A DNA stretch of 32,000 nucleotides from an uncultured Eggerthellaceae bacterium (GCA_947566075.1 CANOIM010000006.1:91930-123929); one strand, 5' to 3'; counted from the first letter of the stretch, positions 16,657 through 20,487 are shown. Notes: a model not told the origin generated them from the letters alone. Numbers and translations are program-made.

Positions 16657-16733
16657 GCGCCATTACCTCAGCTGGATAGAGGAGCTGACTACGAATCAGA
16701 CCGTCGGGGGTTCGAATCCCTCATGGCGCACCA
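16657..16733 (+). tRNA. tRNA-Arg (ACG)
   Basis: 77 nt. Acceptor GCGCCAT/ATGGCGC, anticodon loop CTACGAA, GGTTCGAATCC T-loop, encoded CCA. Resembles E. coli argQ-type tRNA. A34 is the TadA substrate. Confidence 0.92.
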
Positions 16734-16769
16734 CTACGCCCGAGCAATAGCATTGCTCGGGCGTAGTGG
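16731..16769. terminator. 18-bp perfect stem / 3-nt loop hairpin beginning at the CCA end of tRNA-Arg
   Basis: CCACTACGCCCGAGCAAT-agc-ATTGCTCGGGCGTAGTGG. No U-tract follows, so it is a terminator or a processing hairpin. Confidence 0.5.
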
Positions 16770-16916
16770 TCTAAGGCGGCATCACTGCAACCCCATGAAA
16801 GGAACGTACTTGAAGGTTCGAAAACCGAAACCTCACAGTATGTGACATCTGACCTTGCTTGTAGCTTGTCTTTAGGCACGGTCAGATGGCCACCGTGACA
16901 TTAAGGACAGCTGCTC

Positions 16917-18278
16917 ATGCTCTATCTCTCCGAAATGCTGGGCAAGCCCGTCGTGGACGCGTCCGGCGAGAAGATCGGTACGATCTCTGACCTGGCCATA
17001 TCCACAGGCGAGGTCTTCCCGCGTATAACGAGCCTCGCGTTCAAGGGCCCCGGACGCGTACCCTTCATGATCTCTTGGCGCAAATACGTTGACGCCTTCG
17101 ATGATGATGGCATCACCCTGGCGGTGGATGCGCCGGACATCCGCTTCAGCTATCTTCAGCCTGATGAGGTGCTCTTAGCCCGAGACCTGATGAACCGGCA
17201 GATCGTGGACACCCAGGGCCTGAAGGTGGTCCGGGTGAATGACCTGAAGCTCTCCCAATCAGGCACCCAGCTTCGCCTCTTAGGGGCCGAAACGGGCATC
17301 CGCGGCATCCTGCGCGGCTTGCACCCCCTGATCGAACGAGCGGCGGTGAAAGCTGCAAAGCTCTTCAAGCGTGATATGGATGAGCAGATCATCGCCTGGA
17401 ACTACATGGACCTCCTGGACCGAGACCTCTCAGAAGTGCAGCTCTCCGTCACCCACAAGCGCCTAGATGAGCTGCATCCTGCAGACGTGGCAGACATCCT
17501 AGAGCAGCTTGACCCGAAGCAGCGGGCCAGCGTCTTCGAGCACCTTGACGAGGCCCAGGCCTCAGAAGCGGTCTCGGAGATGATGGATGAGGTACAGGCG
17601 GAATTCCTGGATGACTTGGATGATGCCACCGCCGCTCAGCTCATCGGCAACATGGACCCTGATGACGCAGCCGATATCGTCCGTGACCTTCCCTATGAGA
17701 AGGCCGAGACGCTGTTGCACCTCATGGGCGTGGAAGATGCTGCTGAGGTCATCCGCCTTCTGGGCTACAAGGATGGCACTGCGGGCGGGATGATGACCAC
17801 CCAGTACGTCTCCGTGCCGAAGAGCTCTACCGTCCGCGAGACCATCGAGGTGCTTCGCGGGCTGGATGAAGACCATCCCACGGTGCATTACGTCTACGCC
17901 ACTGATAGCCAAGGCCGATTGGCAGGCGTGTTGTCCATGCGCACCCTCGTCCTCAGCGCCGATGACACCTGCATCGGTGACATCATGTACGATGACGTCA
18001 TCTCCGTGACCCCGGATGTGGAAGAAGATGACGTGGTAGCAGACATCTTCAAGTATGACATCCCTGCTATGCCTGTGGTGGATGAGCACGGGCATATCCT
18101 GGGGATCGTCACCACCGAAGACGCCTGGGATGCCCTCGAAGAGGATGCGGCCAGCGAAAAGCGGCAGATGAGCGTCCTCAAGGTCATCGGCATCACCCTT
18201 GGATGCGTGCTGATCCTCTTCGTCTACACCGTCTTCCTCATGCAGATCCTCCGTCAGACCGGCATCCCCGCCTTCTAG
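16917..18278 (+). CDS. PRC-barrel + MgtE N-domain + CBS-pair protein with a single C-terminal TM helix (MgtE cytosolic sensor without the channel domain)
   Basis: 453 aa.
- The N-terminus (MLGKPVVDASGEKIGTISDL) is PRC-barrel-like.
- LHPADVADILEQLDPKQRASVFEHL...MDPDDAADIVRDLP is a typical MgtE_N domain.
- AGGMMTTQYVSVPKSSTV...PAMPVVDEHGHILGIVTTED is a CBS pair.
- The protein ends after one hydrophobic helix (VLKVIGITLGCVLILFVYTVFLMQIL). Confidence 0.8.
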   Translation: MLYLSEMLGKPVVDASGEKIGTISDLAISTGEVFPRITSLAFKGPGRVPFMISWRKYVDAFDDDGITLAVDAPDIRFSYLQPDEVLLARDLMNRQIVDTQGLKVVRVNDLKLSQSGTQLRLLGAETGIRGILRGLHPLIERAAVKAAKLFKRDMDEQIIAWNYMDLLDRDLSEVQLSVTHKRLDELHPADVADILEQLDPKQRASVFEHLDEAQASEAVSEMMDEVQAEFLDDLDDATAAQLIGNMDPDDAADIVRDLPYEKAETLLHLMGVEDAAEVIRLLGYKDGTAGGMMTTQYVSVPKSSTVRETIEVLRGLDEDHPTVHYVYATDSQGRLAGVLSMRTLVLSADDTCIGDIMYDDVISVTPDVEEDDVVADIFKYDIPAMPVVDEHGHILGIVTTEDAWDALEEDAASEKRQMSVLKVIGITLGCVLILFVYTVFLMQILRQTGIPAF

Positions 18279-18285
18279 GTGAGCC

Positions 18286-19548
18286 ATGCAAGCCCCTGCC
18301 ACTGAGACTGCCCCCAAGGCCCCCCGTCCTAAGGCGCTCTTGGTGCTGGCTGCCATGGGCCCGGGCATCATCACCGCCATGGCCGGGAATGATGCTGGTG
18401 GCATATCCACCTATTCCACCGCAGGGGCCAACTTCGGGTTCGCCACCCTCTGGGTCATTCCTCTCATGTGCATCATGCTGACCCTGGTAGAGCTCACAGC
18501 GGCGAAGATGGGAGCCGTCACCGGCAAGGGCTTCGCCGCCCTCATCCGTGAGCGCTTCGGCATCCGCCTGACCGCCCTGGCCATGGCAGCCCTCCTGATC
18601 GGCAACATCGCCACCGTCTTCTCGGAATTCGCAGGGATAGCCTCCGGCATGGAGATGTTCGGGGTGTCCCGCTACCTTTCCGTGCCTGTTGCAGCTGTGG
18701 TGGTGTGGGTGCTCATCGTGGGCGGTTCCTACAAGCGAGTGCAGAACGTCTTCATGGCCCTTTCCCTGGTGTTCCTCACCTATGTGGTGGCTGCATTCAT
18801 GGCTGAACCCAACTGGGAAGAGGCCGCCATCGCCACGTTCGTGCCCAGCTTGGAGGGCAGTTCGGCCTATATCGCGGTGGTCATAGCCATGATCGGGACC
18901 ACCATCGCTCCTTGGATGATGTTCTTCAATCAGTCGAACGTGGTAGAGAAGGGCATGGAGCCCTCAGAGCTGCCCCTGCAGAAGGTAGATGTCGTATCGG
19001 GCACCATAGCAGCTTGTCTAGTGGCCTGGTTCATCATCGTGACCACAGGGTCTGTGCTCTTCCCCCAGGGCATCCAGATCAACAGCGCAGCCGATGCAGC
19101 AGCTGCTCTTGAACCCTTCGCAGGCCACTACGCCAAGGCTCTCTTCGCCCTGGGGCTCATCTCGGCATCCTTTCTGGCTGCCTGCGTGCTGCCTTTGACC
19201 ACCGCTTTCGTCATCTGCGAGGCCTTCGGTTGGGAAGCGGGCGTGTCATTCAAATGGAATGAGGCGCCGCTGTTCAAGGGCATCATCACGGCAGTCATCC
19301 TGCTGGGAGCCGTAGTGGTGCTGATCCCGAACCTGGACCTGTTGGCCATGATGCTCACCTCTCAGTTCGTGAACGGGGTCATCCTGCCCATCCTGCTAGC
19401 GTTCATGGCCCTCATAGCATCGAACGCTCGGATCATGGGTGCCTACCGCTTGGGCAAGGTGGGACAAGCCTTGATGTGGGCATTGGTGGGCGTGGTGACC
19501 ATCCTCACCCTAGGGTTATTCGGCATGCAGCTTCTGGGGATAGCCTGA
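18286..19548 (+). CDS. NRAMP/SLC11-family transporter with NRMT-type (Mg2+-transporter-like) metal-site substitutions
   Basis: 420 aa, about 11 TM. TM1 GPGIITAMAGNDAGGIS has DAGG in place of DPGN. TM6 IGTTIAPWMMF has T..A-P-W in place of A..M-P-H. Starts 7 nt after the upstream stop. Confidence 0.8.
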   Translation: MQAPATETAPKAPRPKALLVLAAMGPGIITAMAGNDAGGISTYSTAGANFGFATLWVIPLMCIMLTLVELTAAKMGAVTGKGFAALIRERFGIRLTALAMAALLIGNIATVFSEFAGIASGMEMFGVSRYLSVPVAAVVVWVLIVGGSYKRVQNVFMALSLVFLTYVVAAFMAEPNWEEAAIATFVPSLEGSSAYIAVVIAMIGTTIAPWMMFFNQSNVVEKGMEPSELPLQKVDVVSGTIAACLVAWFIIVTTGSVLFPQGIQINSAADAAAALEPFAGHYAKALFALGLISASFLAACVLPLTTAFVICEAFGWEAGVSFKWNEAPLFKGIITAVILLGAVVVLIPNLDLLAMMLTSQFVNGVILPILLAFMALIASNARIMGAYRLGKVGQALMWALVGVVTILTLGLFGMQLLGIA

Positions 19549-19567: not shown

Positions 19568-20266
19568 TCAGGAGATGAAGAGCTTCCATTCTATGGAAGC
19601 CGCTGGAGATATTGATTCGATGTGCGAGATATCTGGCACCGCAGCAACGAAGGGGATGTTAGCCGCTGCGATGGCAGGGAACGGATGGGGTGCGAAGGGG
19701 ATCTTCATGGTGCTGTCAGGCAGAGGGATGCTCCTGCCTATCTCTGAGAGCACGTCATGGAAGAGGTCATCAGCACTTGCCTTCTCTTCAAGGCGACGGC
19801 TTTCCTGGGCCAAGCGATCAGCTAGGTACCGGTCTATGTTCTCTTGATCCTTCGCGCATTTCACCAGCATATCTATGGTGATGCTGTCCAAATAGGCGTC
19901 ATAGCTTTCGAAAGCCAGCTCCAAGGTCTTGTGGATGCCCTCTACGATGGGCGGATCATCAGAATTGGAGGTATCTACCACATCATCTGCAGGAGCCATG
20001 CTCTTGGTCTTCGCCCCATCACCGATAGCGTTGATGATCTCAAGGAAGGTGATCCGAGAGGCATCTTTCGCCAGCAAGTAACCGCCGGTCTTGCCTGCTT
20101 TGGCATCAACGATACGGGCATTGCGCAAGAGCTGGAAGAGCTGGATCAGATAATCCCGAGGAACAGCGATCTCCTCAGAGATCTTCTTAGAGGAAACGGT
20201 GCCCCCCTCCATGGCAAGATAGATGACAGCCCGAAGCGCGTAATCCACTGATGCTTTCAACTGCAT
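19568..20266 (-). CDS. Rrf2-family transcriptional regulator with an about 90-aa C-terminal extension
   Basis: N-terminus MQLKASVDYALRAVIYLAMEGGTVSSKKISEEIAVPRDYLIQLFQLLRNARIVDAKAGKTGGYLL is a canonical Rrf2 wHTH. The ATG at 20266 has GGAGG 5 nt upstream; the track start at 20278 is a TTG. The three-Cys Fe-S ligand cluster is absent. Confidence 0.8.
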   Translation of the reverse strand: MQLKASVDYALRAVIYLAMEGGTVSSKKISEEIAVPRDYLIQLFQLLRNARIVDAKAGKTGGYLLAKDASRITFLEIINAIGDGAKTKSMAPADDVVDTSNSDDPPIVEGIHKTLELAFESYDAYLDSITIDMLVKCAKDQENIDRYLADRLAQESRRLEEKASADDLFHDVLSEIGRSIPLPDSTMKIPFAPHPFPAIAAANIPFVAAVPDISHIESISPAASIEWKLFIS

Positions 20267-20487
20267 GACTGCCTCCAAACAGCGCTTAGGGAACCACCCA
20301 CTATCTATCCTGCGAAGCTATCTCCACATCGCTAATATATCTACCCAGCGATCAAAGTGGGACCCTCTTTGGGATAACCGTTGCCGAGCCGTCAAAAAAC
20401 AGCCTTTGACCTGCAGTTATATATGATTTCCGGTGTTATAGATGATGCTAAGGATGAGCTTTAGAAAGCTTGAGGGGTTGAGATGAG

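Follow-up and report, generated by a model that had tools for sequence, protein, structure and literature searches.

A pore-less MgtE-like protein encoded beside an NRMT-type Mg2+ transporter in Eggerthellaceae: a possible trans-acting Mg2+ sensor

Results

We analyzed a 32,000-nucleotide (nt) stretch of DNA from an uncultured Eggerthellaceae bacterium (GCA_947566075.1, CANOIM010000006.1:91930-123929), referred to here as the window. Two adjacent genes on its plus strand are the subject of this work. Open reading frame (ORF) 1, at 16917-18278, encodes a pore-less MgtE-like protein of 453 amino acids (aa), as judged by domain searches, its relatives, and its ratio of nonsynonymous to synonymous substitution rates (Ka/Ks). 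ORF 2, at 18286-19548, encodes a 420-aa transporter of the NRAMP-related Mg2+ transporter (NRMT) type, as judged by its match to PF01566 and to EleNRMT, the NRMT of Eggerthella lenta. ORF 1 and its relatives are called partners below, and features are on the plus strand unless stated otherwise. An earlier note, made from this sequence alone, had proposed that ORF 1 is a Mg2+-sensing module separated from its own channel and acting as a regulatory partner of ORF 2.

Domain searches of ORF 1 matched a PRC-barrel domain at aa 2-66 (16920-17114; PF05239, 1.3e-11, 44.8 bits with a cut-off of 21.2), an MgtE N domain at aa 186-286 (17472-17774; PF03448, 1.8e-28), and a CBS pair at aa ~292-410 (17790-18146; PF00571, two stretches, 4.2e-14). 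The cytosolic domain of Thermus thermophilus MgtE (TtMgtE) aligned to ORF 1 over ~250 residues with E 2.2e-38. A second PRC-barrel-like repeat, diverged and carrying a helical insertion, appears to span residues ~85-170 (17169-17426), and its D98 and D109 are invariant in the family. When family sub-profiles were compared with hhalign, this region matched the profile of the first PRC domain (probability 93.9%, E 1.6e-7), and this profile-profile comparison is the sole source of the assignment, the repeat having no Pfam match by itself. An AlphaFold2 (AF2) model of ORF 1, made from an input alignment restricted to 75-97% identical sequences, had a mean predicted local distance difference test score (pLDDT) of 63.8; residues 76-181 scored below 50 and are unreliable, and the PRC fold was unconfirmed by the model.

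The hydropathy scan of ORF 1 gave one hydrophobic segment only, a putative C-terminal transmembrane (TM) tail anchor at aa ~423-445 (18183-18251). PF01769, the MgtE pore family, had no match in ORF 1 in the Pfam search. The TIGR00400 mgtE model covered ORF 1 only for model positions 15-258 of 450 and scored 171 bits, below its cut-off of 232.75. We also searched every frame of the window by tblastn with 23 MgtE TM domains and found no pore remnant, the best match having E = 0.22. Because the pore family is not matched, a single TM helix is present, TIGR00400 stays below its cut-off, and the window holds no pore remnant, we conclude from the sequence that ORF 1 is not an MgtE transporter. The AF2 model predicted one continuous helix from residue 400 to 448, running from the end of the second CBS domain through the TM segment, with a pLDDT of ~84-88 in the TM part. 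The tail segment has a Ka/Ks of ~0.3 and is kept in Eggerthellaceae relatives. Since the helix gave no convincing alignment to MgtE TM1, regarding it as a remnant of TM1 is conjecture.

We mapped the Mg2+ sites listed by Maruyama et al. 2018 (PMC5882242) onto ORF 1 through its alignment to TtMgtE. ORF 1 keeps the acidic ligands of Mg4 (D249/D402), Mg5 (D381/D405), Mg6 (D253), and Mg7 (E217); E217, D249, and D253 lie in the N domain and D381, D402, and D405 in the CBS pair. In a diverse family alignment of 60 members, the Mg4, Mg6, and Mg7 positions were acidic in 88-100%. The Mg5 positions were less conserved in the same alignment, being acidic in 37% at D381 (mostly Asn) and in 73% at D405. 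These data suggest that ORF 1 has probably retained the function of a Mg2+ sensor. For the ATP site of TtMgtE, with residues taken from PMC5529423, Tyr170 and Arg187 are kept in ORF 1 as Y325 and R342, and Val207 is conservatively replaced by Ile362; D188, N203, and F227 correspond to T343, Y358, and I382. The module is very acidic, with 57 Asp+Glu vs 15 Lys+Arg in aa 171-415.

Both genes are under strong purifying selection, with Ka/Ks values, determined against two relatives, of 0.04-0.07 for ORF 1 and 0.046 for ORF 2. The most constrained stretch of ORF 1 is aa 1-170 (Ka/Ks 0.02-0.04). More than 100 clusters of ~450-aa proteins that are 75-100% identical to ORF 1 were found in Eggerthellaceae/Adlercreutzia, and the same architecture and length also occurred on contigs from independent assemblies. 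The number of homologue clusters and the low Ka/Ks exclude a chance ORF for either gene.

ORF 2 matched the Nramp family (PF01566) over model positions 1-356 of 357 (3.9e-83). Among all Protein Data Bank (PDB) sequences, its best match was EleNRMT (7QIA; E 1.8e-198, 663 bits), with 76% identity over 410 aa of the construct, and MntH/DMT structures reached at most 84 bits. The MntH model NF001923 gave 116 with a cut-off of 430, so ORF 2 is nearer to NRMT than to the Mn2+/Fe2+ NRAMPs, as judged by bit scores and by the MntH cut-off. The TM1 metal-site motif, D36-A-G-G39 (18391-18402), aligns with D55...G58 of EleNRMT; as in NRMTs generally, the Asp is kept and the Asn is replaced by Gly. The TM6 motif, G204-T205-T-I-A208-P-W210 (18895-18915), aligns with T224, A227, and W229, with T205 in place of the Ala and A208 in place of the Met that selects soft metals. 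The proton-pathway histidines of alpha-6b are replaced by W210 and N215, as in EleNRMT, and E114 of alpha-3 and Q360 of alpha-10 are kept, identical to EleNRMT.

EleNRMT was characterized by Ramanadane et al. 2022 (eLife 11:e74589; PMC8806188) as an uncoupled Mg2+/Mn2+ transporter, and the residues found to define its Mg2+ site and its lost proton coupling are D55, G58, T224, Q379, E133, and the alpha-6b Trp/Asn. Because the residues named by these authors all have identical counterparts in ORF 2, its sequence places it in the NRMT clade of SLC11/PF01566. From the 76% identity we infer that ORF 2 takes up Mg2+ (and Mn2+) with no coupling to protons. The descriptive claims of the earlier note held up at every point: the length and domain content of ORF 1, its single helix and missing five-TM (5-TM) pore, the NRAMP-fold gene 7 nt downstream, the positions of both metal-site motifs in ORF 2, and the placement of ORF 2 among the NRMTs.

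ORF 2 starts at 18286, 7 nt past the TAG of ORF 1 at 18276-18278. The E. lenta-type locus has a 4-nt junction, and the two genes overlap by 4 nt in 12 loci, according to ORF calls made here. We surveyed the pair from both sides. A pattern scan for the partner in one genome per species gave 80 loci, of which 48 were non-redundant and 44 had room downstream; they span Coriobacteriia, Chloroflexota, Nitrospirota, Acidobacteriota, Deltaproteobacteria, Saccharimonadales, Clostridia, and one Methanobacteriaceae archaeon. The next gene was a co-oriented one of NRMT type in 39 of these 44 (89%), and in one further locus (L065) the adjoining NRMT gene was convergent. The linked NRAMPs all had NRMT-type motifs, and none had DPGN or the Met/His pair. 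Starting from the transporter alone, we took the best 80 of 583 metagenomic matches to ORF 2, 74 of which had upstream sequence, and a partner lay upstream on the same strand in 71 of the 74 (96%), a figure that holds for this section of the NRMT clade since the 80 loci are the matches most similar to ORF 2. The earlier note had allowed that the pair might show no conserved synteny, and this was not borne out. ORF 1 and ORF 2 thus form a conserved operon, in which translation of the two genes is probably coupled.

Two of the transporter-based loci (L085 and L087) encode an NRMT that is 97% identical to the PDB construct. Both have a 450-aa TM-tailed partner upstream and the same leader block as the window (described below). 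EleNRMT therefore has a partner in its native operon.

The four partner loci with no adjacent NRMT (L046, L047, L073, and L081) comprised two 5-TM forms, each followed by a ~200-aa gene, and two soluble forms. The archaeal pair, from a Methanobacteriaceae metagenome-assembled genome (L069), consists of a soluble 423-aa partner and a transporter with DAGG and GTTIAPW motifs. Two loci (L059 and L062) apparently have two tandem NRMT genes behind one partner. Partner-NRMT gene fusions suggested by the ORF calls in L058, L059, and L062 were rejected, as frame arithmetic indicated that they are apparently over-extended calls or tandem NRMT genes, and no fusion was seen.

A search through all of 1.84 billion representatives gave 969 relatives of ORF 1 at E <= 1e-30. 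The majority form of this PRC-PRC-MgtE_N-CBS family is soluble and ~405-450 aa long. The single-TM-tailed form, to which ORF 1 belongs, occurs mainly in Eggerthellaceae. A third form of ~600 aa has 4-6 predicted TM helices, and ~750-aa forms also occur. What the ~600-aa class has in addition is an MgtE TM domain (profile vs TtMgtE TM domain, E 9e-36), and 15 of 22 examined members matched PF01769. In the alignment made here, one of the 22 only (P0221) kept the GNxGxQ motif of TM2 together with the Asp of TM5 that corresponds to D432. The Coriobacteriia members of this class that are nearest to ORF 1 (53-64% identity) are not recognized by any Pfam family for this domain, PF01769 included. Partners of ~600-640 aa with an MgtE-fold 5-TM domain, and with neither GNxGxQ nor the TM5 Asp, were observed among P0122-P0141 and in loci L011, L013, and L014-L044 (Collinsella). 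From their sequences, the ~600-640-aa Coriobacteriia partners look like pseudo-channels. NRMT-type genes lie downstream of such pseudo-pore partners too, in Collinsella, L011, and L013. Because ~600-aa relatives carry an MgtE-fold 5-TM domain, the ancestor of ORF 1 plausibly had a pore. The range of forms suggests that they line up as a reductive series in which ORF 1 is the one-helix stage, the direction of the series being conjecture.

One relative (P0127, 1314 aa) carries the module fused in front of a Mg2+ P-type ATPase of the MgtA type (TIGR01524, 1120 bits with a cut-off of 611). Public records name relatives of ORF 1 as "magnesium transporter", including the pore-less or pseudo-pore proteins P0060, P0064, and P0122. 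Since proteins of the ORF 1 type fail the pore test, this label is probably an over-annotation for them.

A structured 5' leader (16790-16907), specific to the partner-NRMT operons of Eggerthellaceae, precedes the operon. Its most conserved part is a block at 16805-16842, identified by conservation and RNAalifold, with the core TGAAGGTTCGAAAACCGAAACCTCACAG at 16811-16838 and a predicted hairpin, H1. The block, ~45 nt long and invariant or nearly so, was present in all Eggerthellaceae-type loci (L001-L009 and L085-L095), once per operon and 100-190 nt upstream of the partner ATG. In L094 a copy of it (minus strand, ~700-900) also precedes a second, divergent paralogous partner gene. This locus (L094, 1-3407) has two paralogous partner genes in divergent orientation, each with a copy of the leader block, and a tRNA between them.

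Folds and covariation over 11 distinct leader sequences indicate three helices. RNAalifold found compensatory changes at the two basal pairs of H1. Two further stems, P2 (16846-16853/16881-16888) and P3 (16877-16882/16892-16897), are predicted within 16846-16897, and the ribosome-binding site AAGGA (16903-16907) follows them. P2, a stem of 8-10 bp, belonged to the minimum free energy structure in 9 of the 11 leaders although its arm sequences vary between species. The 6-bp P3 keeps its pairing through two-sided changes, with CACGGU/ACCGUG in the window and GCAGUC/GACUGC, GCAGCC/GGCUGC, or GUAGUC/GGCUAC elsewhere. Both stems thus show compensatory changes. P2 and P3 cannot form together because their arms share 1-4 nt.

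No known riboswitch, M-box included, was found upstream of ORF 1 at gathering score or E <= 10, and the leader matched no Rfam family at E <= 10. In L013 the pair is directly preceded by an M-box (128 bits), and none was found in the 24 other partner loci scanned. Placed where L013 has its M-box, the Eggerthellaceae leader looks like a candidate for a new, dedicated cis-regulatory RNA. Transcription or translation of the Eggerthellaceae pair is probably under the control of this structured leader instead of an M-box.

Directly upstream of the operon is a tRNA-Arg(ACG) gene (16657-16733; Rfam tRNA, 57 bits; ARAGORN), and several relatives likewise have a tRNA gene ahead of the operon. Between this tRNA and the leader, the fold gave a perfect stem-loop of ~15 bp at 16734-16766. 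Lacking a T-run, this stem-loop may mark a site of processing or act as an atypical terminator. On the other side, convergent with the operon, a minus-strand gene at 19568-20278 encodes an Rrf2-family regulator of 236 aa (Pfam domain at 8-140) with an unusually long C-terminal extension; an Rrf2-family gene adjoins the pair in the closest relatives as well (L001, L002, and L004). A mobile-element origin of the locus was rejected, as there was no megablast match in a plasmid collection and the flanks are housekeeping genes.

Discussion

The pairing of an MgtE-like protein with an NRMT has been known since Shin et al. 2014 (PLoS Genet 10:e1004429; PMC4072509), who described "mgtE-nramp operons", found such a neighbor for most NrmT genes, and noted that many of these operons are under M-box control. 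They proposed that the MgtE-like protein exerts cytoplasmic feedback regulation on transport or serves as a chaperone. The earlier note had implied that the pairing was new. Its central idea is a rediscovery, because the same hypothesis had already been published. Beyond the article text of Shin et al. are the tandem PRC N-terminus ("PRC" occurs there 0 times), the TM-tailed and degenerate-pore forms, the MgtA fusion, and the structured Eggerthellaceae leader. The neighboring gene is undiscussed in Ramanadane et al. 2022, in whose text "operon" and "CBS" are absent, and we found no relevant later work on the partner or on PRC+MgtE proteins beyond these two papers in the open-access literature.

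We lean, if only slightly, toward reading the locus as a two-gene Mg2+-uptake operon in which the partner senses Mg2+, associates with the NRMT, and inhibits it when the cell is Mg2+ replete. Like MgtE, ORF 1 would dimerize by way of its CBS pairs, and its TM tail would hold it at the membrane. When cytosolic Mg2+ is sufficient, ORF 1 would bind Mg2+ at the retained sites of the N/CBS interface, and the Mg2+-clamped protein could then contact the cytoplasmic face of the NRMT and inhibit transport. For docking, the strongly conserved PRC barrels would be the surface to consider first. ORF 1 would in this way supply negative feedback to an otherwise unregulated uniporter driven by the membrane potential, feedback of a kind that MgtE and CorA possess in cis. 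We read the partner as a brake because a divalent-cation uniporter that is uncoupled and runs on the membrane potential needs one.

Support for a regulatory partner comes from comparative evidence, namely the near-obligate two-way synteny, the retained Mg4-Mg7 ligands, the M-box in L013, and the MgtA fusion. The earlier proposal is in this way supported in part, and regulation of the NRMT by its partner, like a contact between the two, is plausible but unproven. Several observations weigh against the brake. The Mg2/Mg3 ligands, which couple the MgtE sensor to its pore, are only partly kept in ORF 1 (S413/E414), and Phe227 of TtMgtE, which stacks on ATP, is Ile in ORF 1 and mostly Leu across the family. 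The AF2 model of ORF 1 is too poor for statements on an interface. Four of the 44 partner loci have no adjacent NRMT. The MgtA fusion is one 90% cluster on two contigs (Logan assemblies) and, being this rare, supports direct action on transporters only weakly. NRMTs of Clostridium acetobutylicum transport in Bacillus subtilis without a partner (PMC4072509), and EleNRMT does so in vitro (PMC8806188), so the partner is unnecessary for NRMT activity. When Acp2976 and Acp2977 of A. capsulatum were co-expressed in B. subtilis, there was no further gain in Mg2+ rescue (PMC4072509). The transporter in that test behaved mainly as a Mn2+ importer (PMC4072509). This outcome does not separate the readings, since a brake would go unseen in a rescue assay.

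In the opposite reading, the partner is a positive factor for the NRMT: a metal chaperone or a local buffer of Mg2+/Mn2+ that passes on ions coming from the NRMT, or a subunit for assembly or stability on which full transporter activity or correct folding in vivo would depend. Shin et al. listed the chaperone role as their alternative (PMC4072509), the strongly acidic module would suit such a function, and the tight coupling of the genes fits a stoichiometric complex of either sign. However, the C. acetobutylicum and E. lenta NRMTs work without a partner, co-expression brought no gain in rescue, and the residues conserved in the partner are exactly those that drive Mg2+-dependent closing in MgtE. 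We regard a positive factor as unlikely, while giving it some weight. It is slightly less likely still that partner and NRMT never touch, the partner being an independent Mg2+-responsive protein that is co-transcribed for Mg2+ homeostasis and may use its PRC barrels to signal to some other target. In unrelated systems (RimM and the H subunit of the photosynthetic reaction center), PRC barrels serve as modules for protein interaction. The mostly soluble nature of the partners and the four loci with no adjacent NRMT also fit such independence. Against it, synteny of 89% and 96% across phyla and in an archaeon, with overlapping or nearly abutting genes, would be unusual for mere co-regulation; the module is covalently fused to another Mg2+ importer in the MgtA fusion, and the tethered and pseudo-pore forms place it at the membrane.

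The earlier note had also considered that a frameshifted pore domain might lie downstream and make ORF 1 a pseudogene. The ~600-aa relatives with an MgtE-fold 5-TM domain would lend themselves to a reading of ORF 1 as a decaying MgtE remnant, or as a mis-assembled fragment. This idea is refuted by the tblastn search, in which the 23 MgtE TM domains found only noise in the window, with the next gene starting 7 nt past the stop. The low Ka/Ks and the recurrence of the same architecture and length in more than 100 clusters and in independent assemblies also speak against decay or mis-assembly, and the probability that we would assign to either is negligible.

The Mg2+-responsive brake can be put into a broader form, which we advance tentatively, as a joint proposition that we think has somewhat less than an even chance of holding in all its parts. 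PRC-PRC-MgtE_N-CBS proteins would be a detachable, trans-acting Mg2+-gating subunit that docks onto unrelated importers and closes them (NRMT and occasionally MgtA) at high cytosolic Mg2+. The family would preserve a path from full PRC-MgtE through a pore without ion-binding residues and a single TM tail to a soluble protein, and the Eggerthellaceae operon would be under a new two-stem leader RNA. If true, this would be the first time that the sensor domain of a channel is seen to serve as a free-standing regulatory subunit for a secondary transporter of the LeuT fold.

NRMTs are a fourth class of bacterial Mg2+ importers. The EleNRMT work describes them as uncoupled uniporters without a regulatory domain of their own (PMC8806188), and a near-obligate partner is the obvious candidate for how cells escape Mg2+ overload through them. 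EleNRMT is structurally tractable and its native operon holds a partner, yet it was studied alone, which makes the question directly testable. There is also a consequence for annotation, in that pore-less partners are routinely, and probably wrongly, labeled "magnesium transporter".

Comparison with known systems

The closest described systems are the mgtE-like/nrmT operons of Shin et al. 2014, such as C. acetobutylicum Ca_c0685 and A. capsulatum Acp2976-Acp2977, which have the same pairing and for which the same feedback hypothesis was raised. Like these, the window has an MgtE cytoplasmic-domain protein with a co-oriented nrmT next door. It differs in having no M-box and in that its partner is a single gene whose product has a C-terminal TM anchor. 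EleNRMT (PDB 7QIA, 7QIC, 7QJI, and 7QJJ) shares identical binding-site and alpha-6b residues with ORF 2, whereas the window comes from another species, the uncultured Eggerthellaceae bacterium, and the eLife study concerned the transporter alone. TtMgtE (PDB 2YVX and 2YVY) shares the N domain, the CBS pair, and the Mg4-Mg7 acidic ligands with ORF 1. In contrast to TtMgtE, ORF 1 lacks the 5-TM pore, D432, and a plug helix of normal length, and has an additional N-terminal tandem PRC-barrel of ~170 aa. The ~600-aa PRC-MgtE proteins, such as P0221 and P0144, share the PRC-PRC-MgtE_N-CBS module with ORF 1 at 35-64% identity, but unlike ORF 1 they retain the MgtE-fold 5-TM domain.

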